A stretch of DNA of 64,000 bases, taken from Euglena gracilis. Taxonomy: Eukaryota. Numbering within the stretch: position 1 is the first letter of the stretch; every line of letters starts with the position of its first letter. This document shows positions 14,840 to 54,130 of the stretch, one piece after another. The DNA lies in the NCBI GenBank assembly GCA_039621445.1, contig CP154954.1, forward strand, positions 36,689,703-36,753,702. The letters run 5' to 3'. Made by a program: the position numbers and the translations under genes. The notes under the pieces are model-generated. The model saw only the letters and a list, made by a program, of their open reading frames with translations, was not told where the DNA came from and made no database searches.

Positions 14840-15949
14840 TAATGTCAAGATTTCGCACAAAAAGGACTTAGCCTTCCAAGTATGTTGCCAACATAGAAGG
14901 GATTTTGTTATTTGAGGGGGGGGGCGGAGCCCCCCCCGCCTGTGCCAAAGTGAGCCACAAAAAACGACTTAGCCCCCAAGTGTGTTGCCAACACAGAAGG
15001 GATTTTGCTATTTGAAACTCGGATGGGAGGTGGGGGGGGTGTTTTCTGCCCTTCGTAACGCAGAAAGCTTGCATTTCTAAAGGATTTTCATGTAATCCCT
15101 TTTTCATTGTTAATTTTGTAACCCTCTGGACCCCCATCACAGGCCCACCCACCCCCACCGACCAAAGATTTTCATCTGAGGGTGTTTATGTTGGTGTTAG
15201 GCACTTATTTGGACCCATCCGGACCATTTCCAGGTGATTTGGGTCCGCCACGGACCATTTTTATGACCATCGACTACCGGGGCACCAACTGGTTTGCATA
15301 GGATTTTCTTCATGGGGCCTGTTAGTACAAAAGAGTGGGTAGCCGGCCCACTACACAATACCCCCCATCCCGTCTCGCCGACCACCTACCGCGGCCGACC
15401 ACCCACTACCATCCCCCAGTCCACCGCCATGGAGGTTGGGGGGGGGTGCTGCGGACCCCCCGGTGAACTTCACCGGTGAAGTCCACCGGCCAAAAAAGTC
15501 CTCGTGGTGAACGTTCACCGCTGGAGGTTCGGCAGCCCCCCCCCCCCTGGTCACCCGACCCCCTCGGCACGGCGTGCCGAACCATACCAATGAATTTTCC
15601 TTTGGGAAAACAGCTTCACCCAAACCGTGCCCCGGGCACGTGCCGTGTTCCGTTTCAGCTCCAAACGGGAATTGAATTCACGGCGGGTAGCACTGGTTCG
15701 CCCAGACCGTGCCCCGGGCCCAGGGGAATTGCTCTTTTTTGCCCTCGCTCCGTGAAGAACATCCCTTGCCTTTCTCACGGTGGGTAGCACAGCTTCACCC
15801 AAACCGTGCCCCGGGCCCAGGGAAACGTCTCTTTTGGCCCTCGCCACAAGAGGAACCCCCTTGTGACTCCCTGTGCCGCCACAGGTCGCGGGTGGGATAT
15901 ACTGCGGGGTTTTTACAAAGTGGTACACTGTTCGGTGACCGAGTGAGAG

Positions 15950-16790
15950 GTTAGTGGAAAATGAGCAAGGCTCATCCTCAATATATATAAAAGTGCTGGG
16001 GGGGGCGCGTGTGTGTTGTGGTGTTGCCCTCTTTGGCGTGTTTGTGTCGTTTCTGCGGAGAGTGGAAAATGAGCGAGGCTCACCTTAAATACAGTGCTTG
16101 GGGTGATGGGTGTGGCTCTTGTTGCCTTCCTTGACGTGTTTGTCTCGGGTGGTTGCCTTCCTTGGCGCGTGGGAGTTGTGTTGTGGACAGGTTGTGTGGC
16201 GCGGACTGCCGGACGGTTGCGTTTGTGTTGGTCGGGTTGGGTTATATTCTGTTGGGCCAACGGTGTCGGTGAAATGGGGTTTGGATTTAGGTTGAGTAGG
16301 GAGAGTGAGAGCCTCTACAGGAGGTGTCGGCATTTGTGGATGGTTCAGTGTAGAAGCACCACACAAGCTGTTTCGAGATCTCTTTGGCAAGTGTCAGGGA
16401 GAGGCCTTGCCAGACCTCTGCTTCAGTTTGACGTTGCTGCCAGCCCTCCCGCTGCCCCAGCAGGGCTTTGAGGAGGGTGGACATCAGTGAGCGGCCTTCC
16501 TGGCCCAGTCCCCCGAAGCAGTCAAGCACGAAGGCAGTGAGCCTCCACCCCCGCCTTGCACAGGCGGCATCATATTTCCGGTGTTTTTCGGCTTCTTGCC
16601 TCTCCTGCCACGCTTGCAGTTGGGTGGCACGACCAAGAGGGTTGCTTGGAATTTGGGTGTGTCGAATGGTGACGTCGATTGCCACGGGTCCGTCACTGTC
16701 CAGACGTGGAATAAAAACATCGCCGGGGCGGGTGTTGTCGTCAGCCCGTTGCTCTTTCTTGGCTTGGCTCGCTCCGTTTTCATCGTTCGG
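15950..16790 (-). mobile_element. 5'-truncated non-LTR retrotransposon, RLE (CRE/SLACS-like) clade
   Basis: ORF 16287-16865(-) has RPGDV...VAIDVT...EAEKHRKY...AFVLDCFGGLG, a PD-(D/E)xK restriction-like endonuclease C-terminus; putative 3' UTR follows; boundaries approximate. Confidence 0.8.
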
Positions 16791-18190
16791 CGAACTTCGC
16801 AATTCCGAAATCGTCATCAACGACGAGATGAAGTTCAACGCAACGATTGTGCATTTGTTCTGCACACTGCTGGTGTGTTTTGTTTTGTGATTGGTTGGGG
16901 ATCAGCTACAACCAATGCCAATTTTTTTTGGCAAAGTGACAAAAAGTTGTCAGGGGAAAAAATTCAAAAAGAAATGAAACAGTATCAACAAAATATGTGT
17001 CTCTAATTCAGTTCGGGTTGGGACAAGTCACTACAAAATGCAAGTGAACGGTGGCGCGGATTTCGGCACTGGAGCGGTGCTGGAATGGAGTGCTGGACGT
17101 GATTTTGCCTTCAAAACTCACAAAGAGCACCACATGGCTGAGATGGGCCTTTTGCAGAATGGCAGAAGCTTCTGAGTGCTGAACTCACTTCAGAGACTGC
17201 CAACTGCAGTGCATCTGTAGAAAATCTCTCTGTGCAAAAAGAAACAATAAACACGCGCTTTGTGGACACATGCGCTTCGAGCAGTTGCGCGGATGTCCAC
17301 CTTCAGCGTCGTTAACACCACCGGCATTGTCATCAAAAAACTTGTGGAGTTGAGGCAAAATTTGACGCACTGCAGGGCAGTGCAATGCCATGCAGCGAAG
17401 TGGCAGTGCCTGGCAACGCAATGGCAGTGACAGTGCAGTGGTTTGGGTTTCAAAACAGAGTGCAATGGCAATGCAGTGCAGTGGAGTGCAGTGCAGTGGC
17501 GTTGGCTGTGTTGTGATTCATCAGCACTCCAACCCAGAACTGCGTCAGTGCCGACCACTGGCTCCTCCATGCTGTTGCATTTTGTTGTGGCTTGTCGCAA
17601 GTCCCATGTGCACCTCATCAATCAAGCAGGTGAAATGCTTGCGTGCCAAAAGATGCAAGTGCCAAATGTTGCAACTGTCAGCTGTCAGTTAAACCAAGAC
17701 GGTTCTTGTTCACTGGTTCTTGAAGGAATCAAGGGTTAGGGTCAGAGTCAGGGTTGGGGTTAGGTGAGGGTCAGGTTTAGGGCAGCTGGCGGTCGAGTGG
17801 CGAACAGCACCACCAAGTCTTTTTTCCAAAAACCTGCACTTCATGACCTTCATTGTTCAGTGACCAAGCGTTCCACCATCTGGACCCTATGCAGTCATGT
17901 TTGAGTTTTTCAAATGGCGGTACTTGCTCGCCAAGGGACCTTCACCCAAAATTTTACAAGTCGGTTGCCCTGAGGCCTGAATTGTGGTTGTGTGATACAT
18001 CTGATGGTTTTGGGGTGAATTTTTGCTTTTGGGGGGGGGGAGGGTATGCACAAGATTTGACCAATTTTGCATAGGTCAAAAAATGAGGGGGTGGGGGTCC
18101 TCCAGCCACCCCCTTAATTGGCCAAATGGGGGTCTGAAGCCATTAGTTAAATTGGGCTGAGTTGAGGGCATTTTGGGCAATCCTTCGGTA

Positions 18191-18428
18191 CCACCTCCCC
18201 CCCCCCCTAATTGACCGTGGGACCTCTCCACGGTCACCCCCCATTTGGTCAATTAGGGGGGGGGTTCAATTAGGGGGGGGTTGGTCAATTAGGGAAGGGG
18301 TACCGTCTTTTTGGGGGTGCTTCGGCACGGAATCCCCCCGGGCAGTCAATTAGGGGGGGGGGGGTTGAAAAAATTTTCCCCGGGGCGTTTGGTCAATTAG
18401 GGGGGGGTCAATTAGGGGGGGGAGGTGG
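18191..18428. mobile_element. TA-target MITE with ctaattgac repeats
   Basis: ta|ccacctccccc...ctaattgacc / ggtcaattag...ggaggtgg|ta; inverted relative at ~12456-12660. Confidence 0.75.
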
Positions 18429-18518
18429 TAATAAATTTTCAACACAAAAAAAGTCAGCCATTTTTAGCCATTTTGATCCGTTTTGAATCCATTTTCACAC
18501 TTTCCTCCTCTGTCACAG

Positions 18519-18578
18519 CTCCAGCACCACCTCCCTCCCGCCGCCGATCACTTGGTGACCGCCGGCGCCTCTCCCCTT
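18519..18578 (+). CDS. First recognisable exon (LQHHLPPAADHLVTAGASPL)
   Basis: Pyrimidine tract then cacag acceptor at 18518; peptide is a diverged copy of the AHHLVIAGPAALPL repeat; followed by N3-CAG hairpin intron. Confidence 0.6.
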
Positions 18579-21500
18579 CCTCAGCCACACAATTGCTCCG
18601 GACCAAAAACCACATCTTTGGTGAGAAAAGTCGGACAGAATCTCATTAAAATGTGGGGGAATCTCACAAATTGTGAAGGAAAATGCCAACTGCAAAGACC
18701 TCCACCAGGGAAAATACCATGATGAGCACCCCATGACGCAACCACCCGGGGCAATTTGGGCAAACCTGGAGTATTTCCCCTATTTGGAGCAATTGCATGC
18801 TGACAATTCCTCCCCGCCCCTCTCCCTCCTCTCCCCGCCGCCCTCCCCCTTCCACTCGCCCTCCCCATGCCGGCGCACAGGGTTGCATGGGAAGCTCCGC
18901 AGACATGAGGTAGTTGGCAGGGGAGGGTCACCCACCCCCCCCCCCAGGGGGGTACGGTGGCGAGGGGGATCCACCCCCCCCAGTGTCAAAAGGAGGGTCC
19001 CCCCACCCCCCTCCCCCTCCTCCCCCTCCAAAAAAAATCTTCCGACGCTTCGCACTAAGTGTGCATTTTGGGACCCTCTTGAGGCTCAGCATGAAATTTC
19101 GGCAAAATGGCCAAAAACGACGTCACTCGGGACAGGCGGGGAGTTGTGGGGAAATCAAAATACTGTTAGATGGGCCATTTTAAGGGCTGCAATTTTGTTC
19201 TCCGGACATGTCCTCTAATTCCCTGCCATTTTGAGAAATACCAGAAATTGATTTTTTGACCTCCCCAAAAAACGGCCAAAATTTTCGACAACCGAAAACT
19301 GGGGTTGGAGTCCCAACCCCCCCCCCCCCATTTTGGAAGGATGCTCCCCCCACTCCCTCCTCCGAGATTCCCATGCGGCCCTGCCGCCGCATCACCTGGT
19401 GATCGCCGGCCCCGCCGCCCTCCCCCTTCGCCTCGCCCTCCCCACGCCGGCACACAGGATTGCATGGGAAGTTCCGCAGACAGAGGTTGGTGGTAGCACC
19501 CCCCCCCCCTGGGGGGCAAGGTGGCGGGGGGCCATTTCTGAGAAATGCCCAAAAAGCTGATTTTTTTTAACCCGGAAAATGGCCAAAAATTTCGGCAACC
19601 GAAAACTGGGGGTCGGAGGCGAGGTCCTACCCCCCCCCCCAAGCTTTTGAAGGGTGCTCCCCCCCACTCCCTCCTCCGAGATTCCCATGCGGCCCTGCCG
19701 CCGCATCACCTGGTGATCGCCGGCCCCGCCGCCCTCCCCCTTCGCCTTGTCGCCCTCCCCCTTCGCCTCGCCCTCCCCACGCCGGCACACAGGGTTGCAT
19801 GGGAAGTTCCTCAGACACAGAGGTTGGTGGTAGCAACCCCCCGGCGAGGGGGGGGGGGGCAAGGTGGCGGGGGGCCATTTCTGAGAAATGCCCCAAAAGC
19901 TGATTTTTTTAACCCGGAAAATGGCCAAAAATTTCGGCAACCGAAAACTGGGGGTCGGAGGCGAGGTCCTACCCCCCCCCCCCAAGCTTTGGAAGGGTGC
20001 TCCCCCCACTCCCTCCTCTGAGATTCCCATGCGACCCTGCCGCCGTATCACCTGGTGATCGCCGGCCCCGCCGCCCTCCCCCTTCGCCTCGCCCTCCCCA
20101 CGCCGGCACACAGGGTTGCATGGGAAGTTCCGCAGACAGAGGTTGGTGGTAGCAACCCCCCCCCCCGGGGGGGCAAGCTGGCGGGGGGCCATTTCTGAGA
20201 AATGCCCAAAAAGCTGATTTTTTAACCCGGAAAATGGCCAAAAATTTCGGCAACCGAAAACTGGGGGTCGGAGGCGAGGTCCTCCCCCCCCCCCAGCTTT
20301 GGAAGGGTGCTCCCCCCCACTCCCTCCTCCGAGATTCCCATGCGGCCCTGCCGCCGCATCACCTGGTGATCGCCGGCCCCGCCGCCCTCCCCCTTCGCCT
20401 CGTCGCCCTCCCCCTTCGCCTCGCCCTCCCCACGCCGGCACACAGGGTTGCATGGGAAGTTCCGCAGGCAGAGGTTGGTGGTAGCACCCCCCCCTGGGGG
20501 GGCAAGGTGGCGGGGGGCCATTTCTGAGAAATGCCCAAAAAGCTGATTTTTTTAACCCGGAAAATGGCCAAAAATTTCGGCAACCGAAAACTGGGGGTCG
20601 GAGGCGAGGTCCTACCCCCCCCCCAAGCTTTTGAAGGGTGCTCCCCCCCACTCCCTCCTCTGAGATTCCCATGCGACCCTGCCGCCGTATCACCTGGTGA
20701 TCGCCGGCCCCGCCGCCCTCCCCCTTCGCCTCGTCGCCCTCCCCCTTCGCCTCGCCCTCCCCACGCCGGCACACAGGGTTGCATGGGAAGTTCCGCAGGC
20801 AGAGGTTGGTGGTAGCACCCCCCCCTGGGGGGGCAAGGTGGCGGGGGGCCATTTCTGAGAAATGCCCAAAAAGCTGATTTTTTTTAACCCGGAAAATGGC
20901 CAAAAATTTCGGCAACCGAAAACTGGGGGTCGGAGGCGAGGTCCTACCCCCCCCCCCCAGCTTTGGAAGGGTGCTCCCCCCACTCCCTCCTCTGAGATTC
21001 CCATGCGACCCTGCCGCCGTATCACCTGGTGATCGCCGGCCCCGCCGCCCTCCCCCTTCGCCTCGCCCTCCCCACGCCGGCACACAGGGTTGCATGGGAA
21101 GTTCCTCAGACACAGAGGTTGGTGGTAGCAACCCCCCCCCCCCCCCCCGGGGGGAAAGGTGGCGGGGGGCCATTTCTGAGAAATGCCCAAAAAGCTGATT
21201 TTTTTTAACCCGGAAAATGGCCAAAAATTTCGGCAACCGAAAACTGGGGGTCGGAGGCGAGGTCCTCCCACCCCCCCCCCAGCTTTGGAAGGGCGCTCCC
21301 CCCCCACTCCCTCCTCCGAGATTCCCATGCGGCCCTGCCGCCGCATCACCTGGTGATCGCCGGCCCCGCCGCCCTCCCCCTTCGCCTCGCCATTCTCCCG
21401 GTGGCCCCCATCCTGGCCCTCCCGGCCCCCGCCCTGGCCCTCCCGGCCCCCGCCCTGGCCCTCCCGGCCCCCGCCCTGGCCCTCCCGGCCCCCGCCCTGG

Positions 21501-24162
21501 CCCTCCCGGCCCCCGCCCTGGCCCTCCCGGCCCCCGCCCTGGCCCTCCCGGCCCCCGCCCTGGCCCTCCCGGCCCCCGCCCTGGCCCTCCCGGCCCCCGT
21601 CCTGGCCCTCCCGGCCCCCGCCCAGGCCCTCCCGGCCCCCACCGTGTTGGCCCTCCCAGCGCCCACCCCGCTGGCCACACTATTGCTCAACGCCGGTCCT
21701 ACCCCAACCGGGGGGGCCGGGGGGGGGTGACCAACTGGTTTCTTCAGAGTGACTGACTGGTTTTTTGCCCCCCCCCCCCAAGGGGTGGGGTAGGCCCGAA
21801 AATGAAAAAGTGTATTTTTCGAGATTTTTTGGCAAATGCTCATTGCCTCCTGCAGAGTGGCCAATCCCTCCGGGGGGGGGGGACTGACTGGTTTTTTTGG
21901 AGTGGAAAGCAACCCCCTTCCCCCCCCCCGGGGTCGCTGAGCAATGGTGTGCTGCTGGCCCTCCCAGCGCCCATCCTGCCGGCCCCCCGGCCCATCCTGC
22001 TGGCCCTCCCAGCACCCACGCTGCCGGCCTGCCGGCCCATCTTGCTGGCCACACCATTGCTCAACACCTGTCGTACCCCAACCGGGGGGGGGGGGTATGC
22101 CCAATAATGAAATGGTGGCTGGCCTGACGCCGAAGTTGCAGGAATTTTTTTTGGATTTTTGTATGTATATATAATATGTTTTTTTTTAATATAAATATGT
22201 ATATGTATGTATACGTCTGTACACATACAATGAAAAAGTGACTGACTGGGTTTTCCGGAAGTAGTGACTGACTGGTTTTTTTTTGGAGTGGAAAGCAACC
22301 CCCTTCCCCCCCCCCCCCCCGGGGCGCTGAGCAATGGTGTGCTGCTGGCCCTCCCGGCACCCATCCCGCCAGCCCTCCCAGCCCTGCGGCCTGTTCAGGG
22401 TTTGTTCCCCTGGTGCACCTGACATGTTTTTTTCCCTTCAGAAATTATCGTTTTGCAAGGGGTTGCCCGCCAAAATGGCCAAATGTGCCCACCTGCTGCC
22501 AGGTTTTTTTTGAAGGTTTGCCGAAGATGTATCCATTTTGGACTTTCTCGACCGAGCAGAAGTCCCGGGGCTGTGCAGAAACCCTCAACAGCCAATGGGT
22601 AACAAATGACAGATCAATGATATATAGTTATGTGCAACGTCCCCATTTTTCTGCACAACAACCAACCCTCGCCCCACCCCGCCGCCATCAACCAACCTCT
22701 TCCTCTACAACTACACTCCACTCAACTACTTCTACAACTACACTCCGCCACCTGCCCCAGCAGCCCCCAGCACCATCGATGCCGCCGCCCCCACGTTCCG
22801 CCCCAAACCTCCGATGCCCCCGGCCCCAATGCCCGCGCCCATCCCCAAGCCCACCAACAACACTCCCACCCCCACCACGACTGCAACGACAACCGCCACC
22901 ACCTGGGCTGTGGCCATCGTCGCCGTCATGCTCCTCTTCCTCGCCTTCCAGGTATGTCTTGTTTACATTCCACGCATAATGGTCAGTCGCTGCAGTGTGA
23001 TCCGAGTGATGCCAGTCGGTGCAGAGTGATCCGATACGGGCGACACCACTGTCACCGGAGCCAGTGCTGGTGAACACCCTGCAGTAGCGAAACTTTGGCA
23101 ATTATTTTTTTGGAATAATTCGGGGCGGGGGACAGGATGGGGGGAGGCGTGATTTTTCAGAGACAGATTGCCTCAATGCCAGCAAATTGGGGGGTGCCAA
23201 AAAGTGCGACCAGGCCCCCGGGACCAGGTCGGCTGGGTTCCCCGACCCCAAAAACCCCACTGTCACCGGAACCACTGCTGGTAAAACACCCCGCAATAGC
23301 AAAATTTTGGCCATTTTTCAGTATAATTCGGGGCGGGGGCGGGGGGTGGGGGGGGGGGCGTGATTTTTTGGGGCCAGATTGCCTCAATGCCAGGAATTTG
23401 GGGGGTGCCAAAAAGTGCGACCAGCCCCCGGGACCAGGTCGGCTGGGTTCCCCACCCCCAAAAACCCCACTGTCACCGGAACCACTGCTGGCAAAACACC
23501 GCTGGTAAAACACCCCGCAATAGCGAAATTTTGGCCATTTTTCAGTATAATTTGGGGCGAGGGGGGGGCGTGATTTTTTGGGGCCAGATTGCCTCAATGC
23601 CAGGAATTTGGGGGGTGCCAAAAAGTGCGACCAGCCCCCGGGACCAGGTCGGCTGGGTTCCCCACCCCCAAAAACCCCACTGTCACCGGAACCACTGCTG
23701 TTAAAACACCCTGCAAAAGCGAAATTTTGGTAATTTTTAAGTGTAATTCGGGGCGGGGGCGGGGGGTGGGGGGGGGCGTGATTTTTTGGGGCCAGATTGC
23801 CTCAATGCCAGGAATTTGGGGGGTGCCAAAAAGTGCGACCAGCCCCCGGGACCAGGTCGGCTGGGTTCCCCACCGCCAAAAACCCCACTGTCACCGGAAC
23901 CACTGCTGGTGGTAAAACACCCCGCAATAGCGAAATTTTGGTAATTTTTAAGTGCAATTCGGGGCGGGGGGGGGGGCGTGATTTTTTTGGGGCCAGATTG
24001 CCTCAATGGCAGGAATTTGGGGGGTGCCAAAAAGTGCGACCAGCCCCCGGGACCAGGTCGGCTGGGTTCCCCACCGCCAAAAACCCCACTGTCACCGGAA
24101 CCACTGCTGGTAAAACACCCCGCAAAAGCGAAATTTTGGTAATTTTTAAGTGTAATTCGGGG

Positions 24163-24194
<32 letters not shown>

Positions 24195-27100
24195 GATTTT
24201 TTGGGGCCAGATTGCCTCAATGCCAGGAATTTGGGGGGTGCCAAAAAGTGCGACCAGGCCCCCGGGACCAGGTCGGCTGGGTTCCCCGCCCCCAAAAACC
24301 CCACTGTCACCGGAACCACTGCTGTTAAAACACCCCGCAATAGCGAAATTTTGGTAATTTTTAAGTGTAATTCGGGGCGGGGGCGGGGGGTGGGGGGGGC
24401 GTGATTTTTTGGGGCCAGATTGCCTCAATGCCAGGAATTTGGGGGGTGCCAAAAAGTGCGACCAGGCCCCCGGGACCAGGTCAGCTGGGTTCCCCGCCCC
24501 CAAATACCCCACTGTCACCGGAACCACTGCTGTTAAAACACCCCGCAATAGCGAAATTTTGGCCATTTTTAAGTGTAATTCGGGGGCGGGGGGTGGGGGG
24601 GGCGTGATTTTTTGGGGCCAGATTGCCTCAATGGCAGGAATTTGGGGGGTGCCAAAAAGTGCGACCAGCCCCCGGGACCAGGTCGGCTGGGTTCCCCACC
24701 CCCAAAAACCCCACTGTCACCGGAACCACTGCTGTTAAAACACCCCGCAAAAGCGAAATTTTGGCCATTTTCGGGGGGGGCGGGGGGGGGGGGGGGGGGG
24801 GGGGGGCGTGATTTTTTGGGGCCAGATTGCCTCAATGCCAGGAATTTGGGGGGTGCCAAAAAGTGCGACCAGCCCCCGGGACCAGGTCGGCTGGGTTCCC
24901 CACCGCCAAAAACCCCACTGTCACCGGAACCACTGCTGGCAAAACACCGCTGGTAAAACACCCCGCAATAGCGAAATTTTGGTAATTTTTAAGTGCAATT
25001 CGGGGCGGGGGGGGGGGGCGTGATTTTTTTGGGGCCAGATTGCCTCAATGGCAGGAATTTGGGGGGTGCCAAAAAGTGCGACCAGCCCCCGGGACCAGGT
25101 CGGCTGGGTTCCCCACCGCCAAAAACCCCACTGTCACCGGAACCACTGCTGGTAAAACACCCCGCAATAGCGAAATTTTGGTAATTTTTAAGTGTAATTC
25201 GGGGCGGGGGCGGGGGGTGGGGGGGGCGTGATTTTTTGGGGCCAGATTGCCTCAATGCCAGGAAATTGGGGGGTGCCAAAAAGTGCGACCAGGCCCCCGG
25301 GACCAGGTCAGCTGGGTTCCCCGCCCCCAAAAACCCCACTGTCACCGGAACCACTGCTGTTAAAACACCCCGCAATAGCGAAATTTTGGCAATTTTTAAG
25401 TGTAATTCGGGGCGGGGGCGGGGGGTGGGGGGGGGGACGTGATTTTTTGGGGCCAGATTGCCTCAATGCCAGGAAATTGGGGGGTGCCAAAAAGTGCGAC
25501 CAGGCCCCCGGGACCAGGTCGGCTGGGTTCCCCACCGCCAAAAACCCCACTGTCACCGGATCCACTGCTGTTAAAACACCCCGCAATAGCGAAATTTTGG
25601 TAATTTTTAAGTGTAATTCGGGGCGGGGGCGGGGGGTGGGGGGGGCGTGATTTTTTGGGGCCAGATTGCCTCAATGGCAGGAATTTGGGGGGTGCCAAAA
25701 AGTGCGACCAGGCCCCCGGGACCAGGTCAGCTGGGTTCCCCGCCCCCAAAAACCCCACTGTCACCGGAACCACTGCTGTTAAAACACCCCGCAATAGCGA
25801 AATTTTGGCCATTTTTAAGTGTAATGGGGGGGGGCGGGGTGGGGGGGCGTGATTTTTTGGGGCCAGATTGCCTCAATGGCAGGAATTTGGGGGGTGCCAA
25901 AAAGTGCGACCAGCCCCCGGGACCAGGTCGGCTGGGTTCCCCACCCCCAAAAACCCCACTGTCACCGGAACCACTGCTGTTAAAACACCCCGCAAAAGCG
26001 AAAATTTGGCCATTTTTAAGTGTAATTCGGGGCGGGGGCGGGGGGTGGGGGTGGGGGGGGGCGTGATTTTTTGGGGCCAGATTGCCTCAATGCCAGGAAT
26101 TTGGGGGGTGCCAAAAAGTGCGACCAGCCCCCGGGACCAGGTCGGCTGGGTTCCCCACCCCCAAAAACCCCACTGTCACCGGAACCACTGCTGGCAAAAC
26201 ACCGCTGGTAAAACACCCCGCAATAGCGAAATTTTGGTGTTTTTTAAGTGTAATTCGGGGCGGGGGGGGGGAGGGGCGTGATTTTTTGGGGCCAGATTGC
26301 CTCAATGGCAGGAATTTGGGGGGTGCCAAAAAGTGCGACCAGCCCCCGGGACCAGGTCGGCTGGGTTCCCCACCGCCAAAAACCCCACTGTCACCGGAAC
26401 CACTGCTGGTAAAACACCCCGCAATAGCGAAATTTTGGTAATTTTTAAGTGTAATTCGGGGCGGGGGACAGGATGGGGGGGGGCGTGATTTTTTGGGGCC
26501 AGATTGCCTCAATGCCAGGAATTTGGGGGGTGCCAAAAAGTGCGACCAGGCCCCCGGGACCAGGTCGGCTGGGTTCCCCGCCCCCAAAAACCCCACTGTC
26601 ACCGGAACCACTGCTGTTAAAACACCCCGCAATAGCGAAATTTTGGTAATTTTTAAGTGTAATTCGGGGCGGGGGGGGGGGGGGGGGGGGGGTGGGGGGG
26701 GGCGTGATTTTTTGGGGCCAGATTGCCTCAATGCCAGGAAATTGGGGGGTGCCAAAAAGTGCGACCAGGCCCCCGGGACCAGGTCGGCTGGGTTCCCCAC
26801 CGCCAAAAACCCCACTGTCACCGGAACTACTGCTGGTAAAACACCCCGCAAAAGCGAAATTTTGGTATTTTTAAGTGTAATTCGGGGCGGGGGCGGGGGG
26901 GGGGTGGGGGGGGCGTGATTTTTTGGGGCCAGATTGCCTCAATGCCAGGAATTTGGGGGGTGCCAAAAAGTGCGACCAGCCCCCGGGAGCAGGTCGGCTG
27001 GGTTCCCCACCCCCAAAAACCCCACTGTCACCGGAACCACTGCTGGTAAAACACCCCGCAATTGCGAAAGTTTGCTGCAGTGGAGATAACATGGCAATGT

Positions 27101-30100
27101 GCGCTTACACGGCCACGTGGACGCTACATTGGCCGTGTTAGGTTGTGCGCAAAGGGCAGTAGCGCTTATTATGGGGTTATTGAAGGAGTAGGGTTAGGTG
27201 AGCTAATGGCCAGTTGAGCTACAGGCACGTGGCGCTACATGCCGTGTTGTAGCGCACCGTGGCCATGTATCGCAACGTGGCCATTGAGCGCAAACGTGCA
27301 TGTGCGCCCACCTAAACCATTCTTAATTAACCCTAAATAACCCAAAAAAAGGGTGTCGTACCATAACCGAAAGGGGGGGGGGTCCGTCGTACGATAACAG
27401 ATAAGTACCAATTTTTAAGTGTAATACGGAGCGGGGGTGGGGGGTGGGGGGTGGGGGGTGGGGGGGGGGGGCGTGATTTTTTGGGGCCAGATTGCCTCAA
27501 TGCCAGAATTTGGGGGGTGCCCCAAAAGTGCGACCAAGGCCCCGGGAGAGGCGGCTGGGTTCCCCGCCCCCCAAAAAACCCCACTGTCACCGGAAAACCA
27601 CTGCTGGTAAAACACCCCGCAATAGCGAAATTTTGGTAATTTTTAAGTGTAATTCGGGGCGGGGGGGGGGGGGGGGGGGATTTTTTGGGGCCAGATTGCC
27701 TCAATGCCAGGAAATGGGGGGTGCCAAAAAGTGCGACCAGCCCCCGGGACCAGGTCGGCTGGGTTCCCCACCCCAAAAACCCCACTGTCACCGGAACCAC
27801 TGCTGGTAAAACACCCCCGCAATAGCGAAATTTTGGCCATTTTTCAAGTGTAATTCGGGGCGGGGGCGGGGGGTGGGGGTGGGGGGGGCGTGATTTTTTG
27901 GGGCCAGATTGCCTCAATGCCAGGAAATTGGGGGGTGCCAAAAAGTGCGACCAGCCCCCGGGACCAGGTCGGCTGGGCTCCCCACCCCCAAAAACCCCAC
28001 TGTCACCGGAACCACTGCTGGTAAAACACCCCGCAATAGCGAAATTTTGGTAATTTTTAAGTGTAATTCGGGGCGGGGGGGGGGGTGGGGGGGGGGGTGA
28101 TTCTTTGGGGCCAGATTGCCTCAATGCCAGGAATTTGGGGGGTGCCAAAAAGTGCGACCAGCCCCCGGGACCAGGTCGGCTGGGTTCTGTGCCCCCAAAA
28201 ACCCCACTGTCACCGGAACCACTGCTGGTAAAACACCCCGCAATAGCGAAATTTTGGCCATTTTTCAGTATAATTTGGGGCGAGGGGGGGGCGTGATTTT
28301 TTGGGGCCAGATTGCCTCAATGCCAGGAATTTGGGGGGGTGCCAAAAAGTGCGACCAGCCCCCGGGACCAAGGCCGCCGGGGTCCCCCCCCCCAAAAACC
28401 CCACTGTCACCGGAACCACTGTTGTTAAAACACCCCGCAATAGCGAAATTTTGGCCATTTTTAAGTGTAATTCGGGGCGGGGGCGGGGGGTGGGGGGGGG
28501 GGCGTGATTTTTTGGGGCCAGATTGCCTCAATGCCAGGAATTTGGGGGGTGCCAAAAAGTGCGACCAGCCCCCGGGACCAGGTCGGCTGGGTTCCCCACC
28601 CCCAAAAACCCCACTGTCACCGGAACCACTGCTGGTAAAACACCCCGCAATAGCGAAATTTTGGTAATTTTTAAGTGTAATTCGGGGGCGGGGGGGGGGG
28701 GGGGGGGGGCGTGATTTTTTGCAGCCAGATTGCCTCAATGCCAGGAAATTGGGGGGTGCCAAAAAGTGCGACCAGGCCCCCGGGACCAGGTCGGCTGGGT
28801 TCCCCGCCCCCAAAAACCCCACTGTCACCGGAACCACTGCTGGTAAAACACCCCGCAATAGCGAAATTTTGGTAATTTTTAAGTGTAATTCGGGGCGGGG
28901 GCGGGGGGTGGGGGGGGCGTGATTTTTTGGGGCCAGATTGCCTCAATGCCAGGAATTTGGGGGGTGCCAAAAAGTGCGACCAGCCCCCGGGACCAGGTCG
29001 GCTGGGTTCCCCACCCCCAAAAACCCCACTGTCACCGGAACCACTGCTGGTAAAACACCCCCAATGGCGAAATTTTGGTAATTTTCAAGTGTAATTCGGG
29101 GCGGGGACGGGGGGTGGGGGGGGGCGTGATTTTTTGGGGCCAGATTGCCTCAATGCCAGTAATTTGGGGGGTGCCAAAAAGTGCGACCAGCCCCCGGGAC
29201 CAGGTCAGCTGGGTTCCCCACCCCACTGTCACCGGAACCACTGCTGGTAAAACACCCCGCAATAGCGAAATTTTGGTAATTTTTAAGTGTAATTCGGGGC
29301 GGGGGCGGGGGGTGGGGGGGGCGTGATTTTTTGGGGCCAGATTGCCTCAATGCCAGGAATTTGGGGGGTGCCAAAAAGTGCGACCAGCCCCCGGGACCAG
29401 GTCGGCTGGGTTCCCCGCCCCCAAAAACCCCACTGTCACCGGAACCACTGCTGGTAAAACACCCCGCAATAGCGAAATTTTGGCCATTTTTAAGTGTAAT
29501 TCGGGGCGGGGGCGGGGGGTGGGGGGGGCGTGATTTTTCGGGGCCAGATTGCCTCAATGCCAGGAATTTGGGGGGTGCCAAAAAGTGCGACCAGGCCCCC
29601 GGGAGCAGGTCGGCTGGGTTCCCCGCCCCCAAAAACCCCACTGTCACCGGAACCACTGCTGGTAAAACACCCCGCAATAGTGAAATTTTGGTAATTTTTA
29701 AGTGTAATTCGGGGCGGGGGCGGGGGGTGGGGGGGCGTGATTTTTTGGTACTTGTCTGTTAGTCGATCCACGGCAAAACAGGTCGATCCACACCTACCAC
29801 TTTGGGTCACTGATGTACTTTGGTCATTGATGGACAGGGAAAGCACAAAACAGGTCGAAGATACGGCTGGTGTCGGCACAGGTTATAGAGAGTCAGGGTT
29901 AGGGTTTAGGGGGCGGGTTTGAGTTTGGGTTTAGGGTTGGGTTAAGGTTTAGGTAACCCTAACCAACCCAAACCCAAAAACCTAACCCTAATCCTCAACC
30001 CTGACCCTAACGCTTACTCTCTAGACACTGTGCCAACACCAGCCGTATCTTCTGACTCTCTAGACACTGTGCCGACACAACAGCCGTGTATTCTGACCCT

Positions 30101-33100
30101 GTTTTGTGCTTTCCCTGTCCATCAGTGACCCAAAGTAGACCAAAAATAGGGTTAGGGTTAGGGTTAGGGTCAGGGTAAGGGCCACGTAGCCTGTGGCCCT
30201 AATTAAACCTAACGCTGACCCCTAACTTGATGCTAGCCCTGAACGAACCCTAACTATCTAGAGTGCAACACCAGCCGTATCTCTGACCCTTTTTTATGCT
30301 TTCCCTGTCCATCAGTGACCGAAAATAGGCCAAAAATACGGTTCAGGATAGGGTTAGGGTTAGGGTCACGAAGCCCTAACCTAGCCCCAGCCCTAACCCT
30401 AACCCTGACCCTGACCCTAACCCTAAACCCAACCCTAACTCTCTAGACCCTGTGCCGACACAACAGCCGTATCTTGATTTTTGTGCTTTTATCAGTGACC
30501 CAAAGTAGGCATAGGTGTGGGGGGGGGGGATCGTGATTTTTTTGGGGCCAGATTGCCTCAATGCCAGGAATTTGGGGGGTGCCAAAAAGTGCGACCAGCC
30601 CCCGGGACCAGGTCGGCTGGGTTCCCCACCCCCAAAAACCCCACTGTCACTGGAACCACTGCTGGTAAAACACCCCGCAATAGCGAAATTTTGGTAATTT
30701 TTAAGTGTAATAATTCGGGGCGCGGGGGTGTGGGGGGGGGGGGGGGGGCGTGATTTTTTGGGGCCAGATTGCCTCAATGCCAGGAAATTGGGGGGTGCCC
30801 AAAAGTGCGACCAGCCCCCGGGAGCAGGTCGGCTGGGTTCCCCGCCCCCAAAAACCCCACTGTCACCGGAACCACTGCTGGTAAAACACCCCGCAATAGC
30901 GAAATTTTGGTGTTTTTTAAGTGTAATTCGGGGCGGGGGGGGGGAGGGGCGTGATTTTTCGGGGCCAGATTGCCTCGATGCCAGGAAATTGGGGGGTGCC
31001 AAAAGGTGCGACCAGCCCCCGGGACCAGGTCGGCTGGGTTCCCCGCCCCCAAAAGCCCCACTGTCACCGGAACCACTGCTGGTAAAACACCCCGCAATAG
31101 CGAAATTTTGGCCATTTTTCAGTAATTCGGGGCGGGGGCAGGGGGTGGAAGGGGGCGTGATTTTTTGGGGCCAGATTGCCTCACTGCCAGGAATTTGGGG
31201 GGTGCCAAAAAGTGCGACCAGCCCCCGGGAGCAGGTCGGCTGGGTTCCCCACCCCCAAAAACCCCACTGTCACCGGAACCACTGCTGGCAAAACACCCCG
31301 GAATGGAGAATTTTTGGTAATTTTTAAGGGTAGTTGGGGGGGGGGGGGGGGGGGGGGGGGGGCGTGATTTTTTGGGGCCAGATTGCCTCAATGCCAGGAA
31401 ATTGGGGGGTGCCAAAAGGTGCGACCAGCCCCCGGGACCAGGTCGGCTGGGTTCCCCGCCCCCAAAAGCCCCACTGTCACCGGAACCACTGCTGGCAAAA
31501 CACCGCTGGTAAAACACCCCGCAACAATTTTGCCATTTTTCAGTATAATTCGGGGCGAGGGACAGGATGGGGGGGGGGCGGGGGGGGGCGTGATTTTTTG
31601 GGGCCAGATTGCCTCAATGCCAGGAAATTGGGGGGTGCCAAAAAGTGCGACCAGCCCCCGGGACCAGGTCGGCTGGGTTCCCCACCCCCAAAAACCCCAC
31701 TGTCACTGGAACCACTGCTGGTAAAACACCGTAATTTTAAGTGTAATACGGAGCGGGGCGGGGGGTGGGGGGGGGGGCGTGATTTTTTGGGGCCAGATTG
31801 CCTCAATGCCAGGAATTTGGGGGGTGCCAAAAAGTGCGACCAGCCCCCGGGACCAGGTCGGCTGGGTTCCCCGCCCCCAAAAACCCCACTGTCACCGGAA
31901 CCACTGAGGGTAAAACACCCCGCAATTGTGTAAGTTTGGCCATTTTTCAGTATAATTCGGGGCGGGGGGGTGGGGGGGGCGTGAGTTTTTGGGAATTGGG
32001 GGGTGCCAAAAAGTGCGACCGTGCCCCCGGGACCAGGTCAGCTGGGTTCCCCACCCCCATTGTCACCGGTAAAACACCTTACAATAGGGATTTTTGACAG
32101 TTTTTCAGTATAATTCGGGGTGGGGGTTCGGGGCAGGCTTCTTTTTAATTCACCTGACCCCCCCCTCCCCCGGGGGAGGGGGGTGGGTGGGTGGGTCCGG
32201 GCCGGACCCCCCGGGGGGTGGGGGCTCCGCGCCGCTGCGCCGGGTGTACGTTTTTGGCGCAAAGCGCCGAAAAACGTTGACAATTGCCTTTAACACGCCT
32301 GATTTTTGATTTTGGGGGAGGGGTCCCCGCCACCCGGGGGGTCCCACGCCACCCTGGGGGACCCCCCTTCCCCCCGGGGGTCATAAAAAGAAGCCTGTTG
32401 GGGGGCGCGTGTTTTTTCGGGGCAGATTGGGGGTGTCAAAAAGTGCGACCAGCCTCCGGGACCAGTTCAGCTGTGTGCTTCTCAGCGTGCGTGTGGGAAA
32501 GCCTTCGTGCTCTGCCATCATCTCAATCCAAATCTCCACAGGTCCCGCCACCCGCCGCCTACGTCGCCCCCGCCGAGCTCCTGCAGGAAGCGGACGAGAA
32601 GGCAGCGGAGCACGAGCGGGATCGCCACGCAGGCCCCGGTGGCCAGGAAAATGTGGGCCATCAAAGAAATACCAGGGGTGCACACAATCATTTGCCCCCC
32701 TGTGCTCAGGCGACTCCGCTATGACCCCCCTCCCGTCACAGACACAGCGTCCTGGCGCAAAGCATAAGGCCGAAAACCCTTGGACCCAAAAGCGGCCAAA
32801 AATCAGCCAAAACTTTTTTGGGCAAAAAATTGCCGAAATTTCACAAAAGGGACTCCCGCACCTCACCCCCGCCTTTGCAGTTTCTTCACCAATCCAGGGG
32901 GATCACTGACTGGGTTTTGTCCCTGTCCACCTCCCTCCAGAAGCAGTCATCGCAAAGGTGACCCGGCCGCAAAATATTTCTGCCATTTTTTTCCCGTTCC
33001 AGATTCCAGAGCAGCTGACCCCGGGGGGGGGGGGACTGGCTGGATTTCCAAACTGCCTGGTTCTTGGTGACTGCCTGGTTTTCGGAAGAGTGGACCCCTG

Positions 33101-36100: not shown

Positions 36101-38055
36101 TTTTGATAAAATTTGTGTTTTTATGTCTGTTGTTGTTGTTGTTGTTATTGTTGTTGTTGCATTTTGTTTTTTTCTCCCTCCCGATTTTCTAGTTTCAAAA
36201 AGGGTTTGGGCAAAGGTAAGGGTCAAGGTCTTTTTGACAATGAAAAATTGCTCGTTTTGCCCTCGATTTTCCCCCGAGACCAAAAATTCTGTCGACCTTT
36301 TGTCATTTGCCCGATGGAGAAGTTTTTCCCCTGTGTTGAGTGAACAGTGGTCTTGCGGGAGGGGGAGGGTGCGGGGAAAGAGGGGTTAGACCCCCCGGGG
36401 GGAGGGTGCCACCTGGACCCACCCTGGTGGGTCCAGACCCCCCCTTCAGACCGAGGGGTCTGGGACCCCCGGAAACCCAGAAAGAATAAAAAATGGGTGG
36501 TGCATTGTTTGACTGATTTTTCAAAATTTTTTTTTTTTTAATTCGATTTTTTTGTTTTTTTTGTTGTTAGAGATTTTTTTGTATAATCAAACCCCCTCCA
36601 CCACTCATTTAATACCCTGCCCGAGGGATGGGGGCAGGCTTCTTTTTAAGTCAGCAGACCCCCCCGGGGGGGGGAGGGAGGGTGAGTGCCAGACATTTAT
36701 TCAGTGTGGTATACCAACGTTGTCATTTTGTGGTTCACCGTGGACACCGAGAGTTTTTTTGTGGTTCACCTGTTGACACCAAAAAAAATTTTGTGGTTCA
36801 CACATCTTTTGTGAGCCACACTAAATGAATGTCTGGTGGGTGGGGGGGGGTCCGGGGCCGGACCCCCCGGGGGGTGGGTCCCGCGCCGGGTTTTCCTTTT
36901 CGGCGCGAAGCACCGAAAATTTTTGAAAATTGCCTTTAACGGGCCCGATTTTGGGGTCCCCCCCGGGGTCCCGCGCCACCCTGGGTGGGTGGGGGGACCC
37001 CCCCCGGGGGTCTTAAAAGAAGCCTGGATGGGGGTCCGGACACTCCCAGGCTGTGTTTCAGATTTACAACCTCAAATGCCCCTGCCTCTCACAGTTCGAG
37101 AGCGCGCTGCTGGCGCGTGAGGCAGCGAGGGAACGACCGCCCCGCGCACCGCTAACGGTATGTCATTGCTTGCGCCCCACATCCGCCTGATCTTCGCTCA
37201 CGTCTCCACAAATTTCTCCGGAATGAATTAAAAAACTGATAAAATTCAAAAGAAGACAGATTTGGTGAAATGCAGCTTTCTAAAGGCGATAACGATGGCG
37301 AGGGATGCACATGGGTTTCTGTTTGATTCTTTGCAATGCGCACCCCCCGGGGGGGGGGTGCTATTGGCAGGCAGGGGTAGGGCATTTTCGACCCCTCTGG
37401 AGGGGAGTCGGGGTTTGGGGTGGGTTGGCGCCACAGCACACCCCCTGACGCCGAATGGCCCAAAAATGGCCTCCAAAAAATGACCTGGCTGGTAGGCTCC
37501 GAGATGCACAATACCCCCCCCCCCAGGTTGATGAAAAGAAGCCTGATCCTCTGACGTTGCCCCCCAAATGTTTTGCATTTTGTGGGTTGACTCGCAGAAC
37601 ATCGTACATTTTTTTACCGCATTTTTTTTGGTTGCCATTTTCCCAGGCAGCGAGGGGGAATTATCACAAAGCTCATACCACTTCCCCTCTCACAGGTCCG
37701 CAGCTGGTGGCTGGTGCCCCTGCTGCTCGCCCCCATCGTCGCCGCGGGCTGGACGCACAGGGCCGAGTGGCGTCGGCATTTGGGGTCAGAGAAACGGAAA
37801 GGTGAAATTTGGGAGCACAACCCGGAGTTTGTGGAGCCGGCTTCCTGGGTCAGGTTTGAATTACTGCCAGCGTTGCGTTTCACTCCCATTCAGAGGAATT
37901 TGGCTGAAACATTGTAAGCCTGGTTTTTTTTTGCTGTGCTGGGGGGTTAGATTGGTGCTGTTGACCCCCAGCCAAATCGAGTCAACATGTTTTGTTGAGA
38001 TGTTGAATATTTTCCTTTTTTCATCATCATCATCATCGTCATCATCATTATTGTC

Positions 38056-38087
<32 letters not shown>

Positions 38088-38117
38088 CATCATCATCATC
38101 ATCATTATTATTATTGC

Positions 38118-38172
<55 letters not shown>

Positions 38173-38471
38173 GCTATTATTATCATTATCATCATCATCA
38201 TCATTATTCTTATTCTTATTCTTATTCTTATTCTTATTCTTCTTCTTCTTCTTCTTCTTCTTATTATCATCATCATCATCATCATCATCATCATTATTAT
38301 TATTATTACCATCATCATCATCATCATCATCATTATTATTATTATTACCATCATCATCATCATCATCATCATCATTATTATTATTATTACCATCATCATC
38401 ATCATCATCATCATCATTATTATTATTATTACCATCATCATCATCATCATCATCATCATTATTATTATTAC

Positions 38472-38545
<74 letters not shown>

Positions 38546-39931
38546 GGTGCATTGACCTACCAATGGGCCCTGCTGTTGATCCTGCCGGCCACCGACAGCC
38601 GCCTGGCCAACGCGCTGGCATGGCTGGCCAGGGTTGTATGGGAAGCTCCGCAGACATGACGCAGGTGGCAGGGGGTCCCCCCCTAGGGGGGTAAGGTGGC
38701 AGGGGGGTCCCCCCACCCCCGTCCCCCCGGTTTCGGAAGGGGGTCCCCCACCCACCCCCCTCCCCCTCCTCTGCAGGGGCAAATAAAAATCTTCCGGTGT
38801 GCATTTTTGGACCCTCTTGAAGCTCGATATGAAATTTTGGCAAAATGGCCAAAATTGGTCGAAAAATGGCTGTAACTTGGGCCAGGTGGGGAGTTGAGGG
38901 GAAATCAAAATGGCATTTCAAGGCTTCAATTTAGGTATCTGACATTTTGTCCGCCATTTTTGAGAAATTTCAGAAGAATTGATTTTTTTTGACCCAAACA
39001 GGGCCAAAATTTTCGGCGACTGAATACTGGAGGTAGGGGGGTCCCCCCTCCCCCCCCCCCCCAGTTTTGGAAGGGGAGCCCCCCCCCCCTCGAGATTCCC
39101 ACACAAGCCTGCGGCTGTTGGTGGTCGCCACGTACAGCTGGCTGTACGTGGACTGCCTGCGGCCGCGGCTGCGGTGGGTCGCCGGGTTGTACCCGTGCAC
39201 CTCAAGCGGGGGGCCCTTTGCGGTTGCATTTCAAGGGGCGGAGGGTTGCCTTCAAGTTCATTCGCAAACCCCCAACGGATTTGTCTCTCATCCAAATCCA
39301 ACCTCCCCTCCCCCCCCCCTGGCAGAGGGCCCTCCGCCGCCAGCCGTCGCCGCCATCGTCCATGCCATCGACCGCCGCCTGCGCGAACAAGTCGAGGGCA
39401 ACGGCTACGGCGGGCCACACCCCCGCTGACCCCCCCCCCCCCCCGTTGGCTTGGCTGGGGTCTCCCTGGTCCCTCCCCAGGGATGGATTGGAAGCATTTT
39501 GGTTTGAAGGTGGGTGAGGGGGCCCCTTCCTGGAGGTTGGGGGGGTCCGGACCCCCCCTTCTTTATGACAAAAAATATTTCTTTTGGCGCGCCGGAAAAT
39601 GAACAAAAATGCCCCTTTTCCTCACTTTTGAGCATATTGCGCATTTTTGGGGTGCTTTCCGCAGCTAAAGTGTTCACAATTTTCAAGGAATTCATTTTCA
39701 AAGAAAAATCAAGGGATTTTCAACAATTTTGGTCTCATCCAAATCCAACCTCCCTCCCCCCCCCCCTGGCAGAGGGCCCTCCCCTTTGACACGGGGCGTG
39801 GAGCCACAACGCCGCCTACGCCTCCACCCGCACGGACCACACGTGGGCCATCATGATCGGCCCCGTGGGCGACCTAGCCGTCCACGCCCTGCTGCTGGGC
39901 CAGGCGCTTTTTTTAGCCAACTCCTTTTTTT

Positions 39932-47191: not shown

Positions 47192-47943
47192 CAGGGTTTT
47201 ATGGGAAGCTCCGCAGACATGAGGTAAACCCTCCCCCGAAATAATCCCCCCCTCCAAATAATACCCCCCCCCCCCGGGGTTCGACTTCGGCCACCCAATT
47301 AATACCCCCCCCCCCCCCAAATCTCGGGCCGACGACCCGGAGTTTGAGTGAAAATTTAGGTAAAAATCACAATCTCTGACAACAGATTGCGAAAAAAAAT
47401 TGATTTTTTTGCTGGATCATCTGGCCTCCAAAAATGCTAAATTTTATGAGAAAGGACAAAAACGACCCCAAAGGGGGTTTTGGTGCTATTTTGGGTCTTA
47501 TGGGACTTCGAAAAATTTCGAAAAAATAATTTTTTGACCGAAGAAACGGCCGAAATTTGCAGCGACCGAAAACTGGAGGTAGGAGGGGGCCCTTGTGTTT
47601 AGTCGGGTTACCCCACAGGGGCGCTGCCGGGGGCAGGCACCCTATAGCACCCGATCCGACCCCCCCCCCCCCGGGAGGTGGGGTTTTTGGGGGGTGTTCC
47701 CCTCCGACCCTGGTGCCGAAGACGCCGGGGGCCCGGAAGAGGCCATTTTCAATGAAAATTTTCTGGTCACCCCAATTTGACCCCCCCCAGGGGGGGGGGG
47801 ACACAGAAGCCAGACAAGAAGCCTTAGTGCAACTAAGGGGGGGTGCCTGCGGGGGGCAGGCACCCTATAAGCACAAGTGCTCCCCCCACCCCCCCAGTTT
47901 TGGAAGGGGGTCCCCCCCCCTCGGAGATTCCCATACAAGCCTC
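47192..47943. mobile_element. Family-A MITE with nested insertions
   Basis: cagggttttatgggaagctccgcagacatg ... gagattcccatacaagcctc. Confidence 0.65.
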
Positions 47944-52451: not shown

Positions 52452-52530
52452 GCCACAGCCCACAGCCCTTACGACAACCACATGCACCATCCACCCCACC
52501 CCACCTGCCCCGGCCACCCTGGGCCCCTAC

Positions 52531-52888
52531 CAGACCATTGTTTAACACCTGTCCCACCCCACCCCCCAGGGGGGTGACTGACTGGTTTTTTCAGGGTGAC
52601 TGACTGATTTTTTTGGCCTTGACTTTCCCCCCGGGGGGGGGGGTAGGGTAGTCCAGAAATCACCCAAAAGTGACTGAGTGGCCAACCGGCGTCAAAGGCG
52701 CCGGAGAAAATTTTGGCCAAAAATGGCCTTGAAAGGCCAAAAAGTGACTGGTTTTCCTGAGTGGCTGACCCCCCCTGGGGGGGGGGGTAAAGTGACTGAC
52801 TGGCTTGGCCGAAAAAAAGTGACTGACCGGTTTTTTCGGAGTGGAAAGTGACCCCCCTCCCCCCCGGGGGTCGCTAAGCAATGGTATG
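52531..52888. mobile_element. Family-B MITE (copies at 55813-56170 and 59521-59876)
   Basis: TIR cagaccattg / caatggtatg; perfect TSD gcccctac; empty site gccccaac at ~49901. Confidence 0.85.
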
Positions 52889-53416: not shown

Positions 53417-54130
53417 GGGGGGGTGTCCCCCCCCCCTCCTGGCCCGCAGGGGGGTCCGGACCACACCCCCCCCCCCCCCCCTCGCCAGGGGCCTCCCTAC
53501 CGACCCTCGGGGGGGGGGGGGTTGCCGTGGGTGGACTTGCAACCAGGACCAGAAAGACCTTCAGAAAATGTGACCTCATCTGGGGGCCAGCCTGCCAGCA
53601 GCCCTTTTCCGGCCCGGGACCTGGAGGGGCTGAAGGGGTCAGCAAGCCCAAATTTTCCGGCTTCTGAGCTGAATCCCCTGGGGTGGTCGTTTAAAGAACG
53701 CTCTGTTTGCAACCCAAAAAGTTTTTCCCCTGTGGGCTTGGTTTGGGCTTCGTCCCACGATGGGTATTTTAGTGCTTTCCTTTTTGAGGGATGAATATAT
53801 AAAGGACCATAAATATGTTTTTCAATTGAAACCAGGACCAGAAAGGCCTTCAGAAAATTTAACCTCCTCTGGGGGCCAGCCTGCCAGCAGCCCTTTTCCA
53901 TCCCTCCAAAAAGGAAAGCACTAAAATACCCGTCGTGGGACGAAGCCCAAACCAAGCCCAAATTTGAAACTGCGATTTTGGGGATACTCCAAATCTCAAA
54001 AAGATCCGGCGCTTTCCATAAAACCCTGGCTGTGTTTGCAGAAGAAAACGGGCCTGCCTGTGAGTGGGCCCGCTGCATCACCATCCCCGAGCCGCTGCCG
54101 CTGCTCCGCCACCGACTGCATGGCCACAGC

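Follow-up and report, generated by a model that had tools for sequence, protein, structure and literature searches.

A tandem array of MITE-bearing units with nonconventional-intron ends in Euglena gracilis: probably a proto-satellite rather than a demonstrated gene segment

Whether an intron of transposon origin can multiply the exon beside it, and so build a repeat protein, is the question raised by a short tandem array in Euglena gracilis. The array occupies positions 18875–21342 of the stretch analysed here, 64,000 nucleotides of contig CP154954.1 (assembly GCA_039621445.1, forward-strand positions 36,689,703 to 36,753,702; hereafter the window), in which copies of a transposable element of the miniature inverted-repeat type (MITE), belonging to a family here called A, alternate with C-rich spacers. 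An earlier note on this DNA had taken the elements for introns and the spacers for exons that together build a peptide repeat. We lean towards a different reading: the array would be a proto-satellite, a higher-order tandem repeat of recent origin derived from a transposon, and not a demonstrated gene segment. The anatomy of the array, the fit of its elements to the splicing code of nonconventional introns, the pairing of the element ends, the mosaic of variants among units and the lack of RNA reads at the sampled depth are direct observations.

The Euglena nonconventional-intron code, derived from knock-in assays and quoted here from part of Nomura et al. 2025 (PMC12501133), is 5'-N3CDG-/-CH'GN5-6, followed by R. 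A scan of the window with the terminal inverted repeat (TIR) motif CAGGGTTGCATGGGAA, allowing up to three mismatches, gave 29 matches against 1.67 expected, a number reached in 0 of 100 shuffles; 14 of the 29 form seven convergent pairs, all within the array. These pairs bound seven elements, one of 506 nt and six of 239–253 nt, and the coordinates 18875–21342 run exactly from the N3 of element 1 to the N5 of element 7. Tandem Repeats Finder (TRF) assigns the array a period of 331 with 91% matches. Measured from TIR to TIR, the spacers are in order 71, 92, 71, 92, 92 and 71 nt long, and the spacer core occurs seven times in the window, every time inside the array. The array and its immediate surroundings comprise the following features.

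18537..18580, + strand: older, diverged copy of the 5' part of a spacer, with no adjacent family-A element (BLAST of unit 20443–20773 against the window: 80% over 45 nt, unit positions 236–280)
18833..18877, + strand: left outer flank, a partial spacer (3' part), opening with a diverged 28-nt direct repeat and closing with the 8-mer CCGGCGCA, which resembles a target-site duplication (TSD)
18878..19383, + strand: element 1, full-length family-A MITE of nonconventional-intron type; 506 nt, TIR pair, N3-CAG...CTG-N5 then G, 15/15 end pairs
19384..19454, + strand: spacer 1; 71 nt, 63 after N5/N3 trimming
19455..19697, + strand: element 2, internally deleted; 243 nt, TIR pair
19698..19789, + strand: spacer 2; 92 nt, 84 trimmed, with the extra 21-nt block
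19790..20039, + strand: element 3, internally deleted; 250 nt, TIR pair
20040..20110, + strand: spacer 3; 71 nt, T variant at position 7
20111..20350, + strand: element 4, internally deleted; 240 nt, TIR pair
20351..20442, + strand: spacer 4; 92 nt, TRF 21 nt x 2.4 at 20376–20425
20443..20681, + strand: element 5, internally deleted; 239 nt, TIR pair, the copy used for folding
20682..20773, + strand: spacer 5; 92 nt, T variant, TRF 21 nt x 2.4 at 20707–20756
20774..21013, + strand: element 6, internally deleted; 240 nt, TIR pair
21014..21084, + strand: spacer 6; 71 nt, T variant
21085..21337, + strand: element 7, internally deleted; 253 nt, TIR pair
21338..21391, + strand: right outer flank, a partial spacer (5' part), closing with the 28-nt direct repeat CCCCGCCGCCCTCCCCCTTCGCCTCGCC
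21403..21640, + strand: 21-nt minisatellite; 11.3 copies, 97% matches (TRF), in the same 21-nt register as the spacers
21676..21951, + strand: element of a second TIR family with CACACYATTGCTCA ends, inserted in the same C-rich repeat
22050..22341, + strand: second copy of the CACACYATTGCTCA family, at the equivalent position in the C-rich repeat

The earlier description of one full-length family-A MITE followed by six internally deleted copies is borne out by the TIR scan and by alignment. Element 1 aligns over its full length with a dispersed family copy at 38629–39111 (343/452 identical, 76%), another dispersed copy lies at 47192–47943 within the window, and the six short elements, when aligned against element 1, lack about 260 internal nt. 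Paired TIRs, a size of 239–506 nt and no Pfam family in the open reading frames (ORFs) tried mark the elements as MITEs. In X1, a contig set of uncertain kind (RNA or DNA is a guess), word depth over the interior of element 1 is 305–1144, compared with about 4–7 for unique parts. The short copies are 97% identical among themselves (235/243) compared with 80% to element 1 (189/235), so that element 1 is not their immediate parent.

All seven elements carry the complete code. In the code scan, N3 is GCA or ACA and is followed by CAG at +4 to +6 in 7/7 elements; on the 3' side of the + strand, CTG at −8 to −6, an N5 of CCGCC and G as the next base are likewise present in 7/7. Between 14 and 15 of the 15 terminal positions pair in each of the seven, and an RNA fold of 20440–20686 (element 5; −110.2 kcal/mol, z −2.44) pairs CAG to CTG while leaving N3 and N5 free. 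Judged by sequence, every monomer would be a competent nonconventional intron on the + strand. Going by the code alone, a euglenid-type genome would be the most likely source of the window. The 5' end of any element can pair with the 3' end of each later element just as well. The likeness to Euglena nonconventional introns thus covers the CAG and CTG positions, the paired ends, the N3 and N5 and the G after N5 in every element; the differences are that removal from RNA is not seen here at the sampled depth and that no established gene surrounds the array. A MITE-like origin of these introns, with direct or TSD-like repeats at their junctions, has been proposed in passages of two papers (PMC12501133, PMC11282704). 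Full-length circles are reported in part of PMC11282704 to be left behind by nonconventional introns.

How the array came to multiply can be approached through its junctions. The 8-mers that flank element 1 (18870–18877, CCGGCGCA; 19384–19391, CCGCCGCA) match at 7/8 positions, which suggests an 8-nt TSD; the flanking 8-mers match at 5/8 positions for the copy at 38629–39111 and at 6/8, in low-complexity sequence, for that at 47192–47943. If the duplication is of 8 nt, the sum of N3, element and N5 is the element plus exactly one TSD copy. On its two outer sides the array is flanked by incomplete spacers, which share a 28-nt direct repeat as their overlap, and the left flank matches an array unit by BLAST at 83% over 66 nt (18812–18877). 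When the sequence is laid out in rows of 21 nt, a single register continues unbroken from the last spacer through the minisatellite, and TRF resolves the block added in the 92-nt spacers as a repeat of 21 nt x 2.4. Because of this shared register and the repeat within the block, we interpret the spacers as diverged units of a pre-existing C-rich 21-nt minisatellite.

Variants among the six short units occur in all four combinations at two pairs of sites, alignment columns 21 and 240, both within the element, and column 267 and the 21-nt block, both within the spacer. Repeated exchange or conversion must therefore have taken place within elements and within spacers. These patterns back the claim of the earlier note that unequal crossing-over multiplied a module of element and spacer, and they show that exchange continued afterwards. 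Head-to-tail, element-bearing monomers homogenized by exchange (TRF period 331, 97% identity, mosaic variants) are a trait of transposon-derived satellites or tandem repeats.

We propose the following course of events. A C-rich minisatellite with a 21-nt period would already have been present at the locus, an order that we think probable. A family-A MITE with CAG...CTG termini would then have inserted into a diverged minisatellite unit, at a site bracketed by the 28-nt direct repeat, leaving on each side a TSD-like 8-mer, perhaps a true duplication. A module of element plus 71 nt would have been multiplied by unequal exchange, at first between repeats of this kind and then between entire units; for the initial duplication, the flanking 28-nt repeat may have served just as well. 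One lineage would have lost about 260 internal nt before a recent amplification that gave short copies 97% alike, slippage by 21 nt would have produced the 92-nt spacer form, and ongoing crossing-over or conversion would have shuffled the variants. Removal of N3, element and N5 from such an array would amount to removal of the element and 8 nt, as many as a single copy of the TSD-like 8-mer contains, and would leave 63 or 84 nt of 21-nt-periodic sequence, hence a multiple of 3 and, at 58% C, all but certain to lack stops.

This route has precedents. Transitions from transposon to satellite by unequal crossing-over, some of them starting from MITEs, are described in part of PMC12628747, and satellites arising from transposons in part of McGurk & Barbash 2018 (PMC5932611). 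The present array shares with them head-to-tail, transposon-bearing monomers and expansion with homogenization by unequal exchange. In the MITE-derived satellites Xstir and miDNA4, as treated in the relevant part of PMC12628747, the repeats come from the interior of the MITE, whereas here the monomer holds the whole MITE with both TIRs and a piece of host minisatellite. Unlike classical satellites, the array has only seven copies.

Whether the spacers are exons is a separate matter. After trimming of N5 and N3 they measure 63 or 84 nt, each starting with G, and in the frame given by the earlier note they read (H/Y)HLVIAGPAALPLR(LVALPLR)LALPTP without a stop; downstream of element 7 the same frame enters the 21-nt x 11.3 repeat as PALALPA. 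As a description of in-frame, stop-free spacers that run on into the minisatellite frame, that account is accurate. With the elements removed, the frame is open from an ATG at 18866 to a stop at 21731, 55 nt inside the CACACYATTGCTCA element at 21676–21951 (ORF 21209..21730).

The openness of the frame carries little weight. Shuffled spacer letters (58% C) are stop-free in any one + frame with P 0.86–0.88, four of the six frames are open in every spacer, and the minus strand has a 764-codon open frame (19392–21686), the longest of the region, which runs through elements and spacers alike; for these reasons the lack of stops is uninformative. That the spacers are always in frame is one observation and not six, as they are copies of each other, and 63 is a multiple of 3 because it represents three units of a 21-nt repeat. 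The contrast drawn earlier between spacer lengths that change in steps of 21 nt and 1-nt indels in the elements stands as an observation: the sole length change among spacers is one 21-nt block, and the elements have six indel sites. It fails as a sign of coding, since 21 nt is the period of the minisatellite to which the spacers belong and the element indels fall in homopolymer runs, with five of the six sites in C, G or T runs of 6–17 nt and the sixth an AC slip. The longest homopolymer run is 5 in a spacer and 10 in element 5.

The six spacers differ at one C/T site, at another C/T site inside the 21-nt block and in the presence of the block; 2/92 spacer columns are variable compared with 17/247 element columns (Fisher p=0.11, a selection test without power at 2 versus 17 variable columns). 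Most variants of spacer and minisatellite affect the first or second codon position (H/Y, A>V, L>Q, A>I), and a single synonymous change was seen. The in-frame appearance is probably a by-product of geometry and composition and not evidence of selection, and the spacers probably lack a coding function.

Protein and RNA-family searches gave no relatives. No Pfam family was found for 10/10 window ORFs tried, which include both strands of the array, and Rfam and tRNA scans of 15000–25000 gave no match. The frame of the last spacer and the minisatellite had no match among proteins of 70–224 aa, and one, P0001, among proteins of 225–2000 aa, in libraries that may not include the proteome of this organism. 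P0001 was rejected as a relative: it is an unrelated 368-aa protein in which the match is of low complexity and PALA type.

Three raw RNA-seq runs, X11, X14 and X15, were mapped to a 5.5-kb stretch in which no gene known to be expressed is present as a positive control. The records sampled number about 12.9, 8.3 and 11.9 million (about 33 million in total), or about 5, 6 and 56 in 100 of the respective runs; each study covers one set of conditions, and the runs are linked to the window by species label only. At this depth no reads came from the unique parts of the stretch in any of the three runs. The reads that did map fit only in part (1030/1031 in X11, 260/261 in X14 and 45/45 in X15): a fraction of 0.97–0.99 continues into unlike sequence, with loose ends of poly-C or poly-G, and the read peaks coincide with poly-C/G tracts. 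Depth is at most 0.24 in the bins that contain whole spacers (20260–20443 and 20628–20811), at most 0.23 in the minisatellite bin and 0 in several array bins in all three runs. Reads fitting two places, which array-derived reads would be expected to do, number only 4, 1 and 0 in X11, X14 and X15. Among the 15 joints listed of 33, none links spacer to spacer or skips an element plus 8 nt, and every one has a side in a homopolymer tract.

The tracts themselves deserve mention. Those at 21129–21154, 21709–21727 and 22299–22326 draw hundreds of partly fitting reads and false joints, and in X11 there are 96+65 reads that 'go back' from 22320 to 21132. Such reads look like a homopolymer artefact and not transcription. 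The earlier note had named a region that is not transcribed as what would speak against its reading; this is what the three runs give at the sampled depth, short of proof where a positive control is missing.

The X1 contigs are colinear with the window and unspliced across spacer–element borders (19757–19810, 19781–19983 and 19974–20107), and their depth is about 2–7 over presumed intron and flank alike. Six listed differences between these contigs and the window concern homopolymer length and lie within or beside mononucleotide runs, one of them at 20001.

Among the alternatives to a proto-satellite, the one that survives best, although we regard it as unlikely, is a low-level or conditional non-coding RNA, an untranslated region or a decayed gene, in which carrying the code would be enough for the elements to be spliced, their ends perhaps pairing variably, and no functional protein would be made. 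In its favour are the code fit and the pairing of each 5' end with its own and later 3' ends, and the low-depth colinear contigs would be its unspliced transcripts if X1 is RNA; X1 is of uncertain kind, however, and the raw RNA runs are without reads from the unique parts of the mapped stretch.

A little less probable is an expressed + strand gene, the reading in which the elements are spliced as nonconventional introns and a repeat of 21/28 residues, leading into (PALALPA)n, is encoded by the 63/84-nt spacers as its exons. It would account at once for the full splicing-code fit with a purine at each acceptor-side exon start, the paired element ends, spacers in multiples of 3, a GC-rich third codon position (GC3) and the frame that stays open from 18866 to 21731 once the elements are removed; a possible downstream exon also lies on the same strand. 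Against it, the spacers and minisatellite have no RNA depth, the joints listed include none between spacers and the contigs cross the borders unspliced; composition together with the 21-nt period would give the open frame and the in-frame length anyway; the spacers are not conserved in excess and nearly all their variants are non-synonymous; and the product would be a low-complexity peptide without a related protein, encoded between satellites. The data do not support the spacers as exons from which a peptide repeat is built, given stop-freeness by chance, the 21-nt period, the negative RNA result and the absence of protein relatives in the libraries searched.

A variant to which we give only a slim chance is a nascent coding repeat expressed under conditions outside those sampled. 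Splicing of the MITE plus 8 nt would then make a satellite-like expansion yield in-frame repeat exons automatically, and identical ends could vary the number of repeats per mRNA.

Several points weigh against our preferred reading of the array as a proto-satellite. The elements carry a full intron code, so splicing would be expected if the array were transcribed. The spacer frame has a GC3 of about 90% and a GC content at second positions of about 55%, which is coding-like, although the mirrored minus-strand frame scores the same, and an ATG lies 9 nt upstream of element 1 in the spacer frame. The negative RNA result comes from shallow samples without a positive control and from 15 of 33 joints. 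On the same strand, 1.3 kb downstream, 22628–22951 makes a plausible exon that has a transmembrane-like stretch and a GTATGT donor; it is equally uncovered by RNA, which weakens the RNA negative as much as it weakens the exon.

This exon-like segment (22628–22951, + strand) contains two NYT sites, a Pro/Thr-rich stretch and then WAVAIVAVMLLFLAF; a donor of CAG followed by GTATGT stands at its end and TATATAG before it. All three + frames are open across it. It had 0 matches in 1.84 billion representatives, the overlapping ORF has no Pfam family and RNA depth is nil in the three runs. A gene model that joins the array to this segment was rejected, as the termini of both TIR elements in between, CAC...GTG, miss the code. 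Between array and segment a single candidate fits the code, of CTG-CAG type, at 22391–22591 on the + strand (N3 GGC, N5 CCAAT, then G; 13/15 end positions paired); as a linking intron it was rejected too, because the sequence resumes where 2/3 frames have stops.

A minus-strand gene, either the 764-codon frame or a spliced Gly/Glu-rich repeat (RRGEGEAKGEGGGAGDHQVMR), is highly improbable: it has the longest open frame of the region, a mirrored frame with equally high GC3 and symmetric termini that nearly satisfy the code on that strand with N6, but N5 gives an acceptor-side exon start of C, the sole substitution with an unstable transcript in the published assay as reported in part of PMC12501133, N6, which gives G, makes the spacer 62 or 83 nt and out of frame, no Pfam family was found and no RNA was seen on either strand. 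Equally improbable is an artefact of long-read mis-assembly in copy number or unit variants, to which the homopolymer-length differences between window and X1 contigs and the lack of a contig spanning the array might point, since the units differ by mosaic substitutions and the 21-nt block and X1 contigs fit unit-specific stretches with 0–3 differences.

The array sits between other TIR elements and a satellite of about 9 kb. The CACACYATTGCTCA family (21676–21951, 22050–22341 and also about 18586–18803) has CAC...GTG termini, outside the CDG/CH'G code. Its insertions occupy corresponding places in that same C-rich repeat, so that this module, too, is duplicated. The satellite, at 23046–31979 and 1.7 kb downstream of the array, has a period of 201–208 nt (also 404–407 nt) with 84–90% matches. 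A (TCA) microsatellite of about 173 copies (38021–38545) lies directly upstream of the full-length family-A element at 38629–39111. Identical 114-codon open frames recur at 50528–50872, 53813–54157 and 57100–57444, spaced by 3285–3287 nt, with other ORFs recurring alongside them (for example 52469–52873 and 55751–56155), which suggests that the right part of the window is tandemly repeated in units of about 3.3 kb.

Two known systems bear on what a coding version of this array would resemble. Each repeated unit of the Euglena polyprotein genes rbcS and LHCPII is reported to carry its own intron. These genes would be a precedent for repeated coding units interrupted by nonconventional introns; they differ in encoding known, highly expressed proteins, whereas neither a transcript nor a known domain is found here. 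The rbcS gene holds only nonconventional introns according to part of PMC6221363, in which the paper on the LHCPII polyprotein gene is cited. Introners, as described in part of a review (PMC11282704), are likewise MITE-like, bear TIRs and TSDs and turn into introns upon insertion, but they are spliceosomal, with GT-AG formed together with the TSD, whereas the array elements have non-canonical borders. Tandem amplification of an introner with its exon has no mention in the part of that review covered here (the word 'tandem' occurs 0 times in the review), and a non-exhaustive literature search found no title or abstract opening on tandem amplification of a nonconventional intron with its exon.

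The route from transposon to satellite is already known; what is unusual here is that the monomer consists of a whole MITE and a piece of host minisatellite and is also a code-perfect nonconventional intron. The locus holds a caution for annotation: a C-rich sequence whose period is a multiple of 3, combined with the loss of 8 nt as N3 and N5, gives stop-free, in-frame spacers without any coding function, so that RNA evidence is needed before such spacers between intron-like elements are annotated as exons. Were the spacers exons after all, the array would show exon amplification driven by a transposon-type intron in action and would help to study how nonconventional introns with identical ends pair them. 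As found, the locus mainly shows how a tandem array can begin from a MITE together with a piece of host minisatellite.

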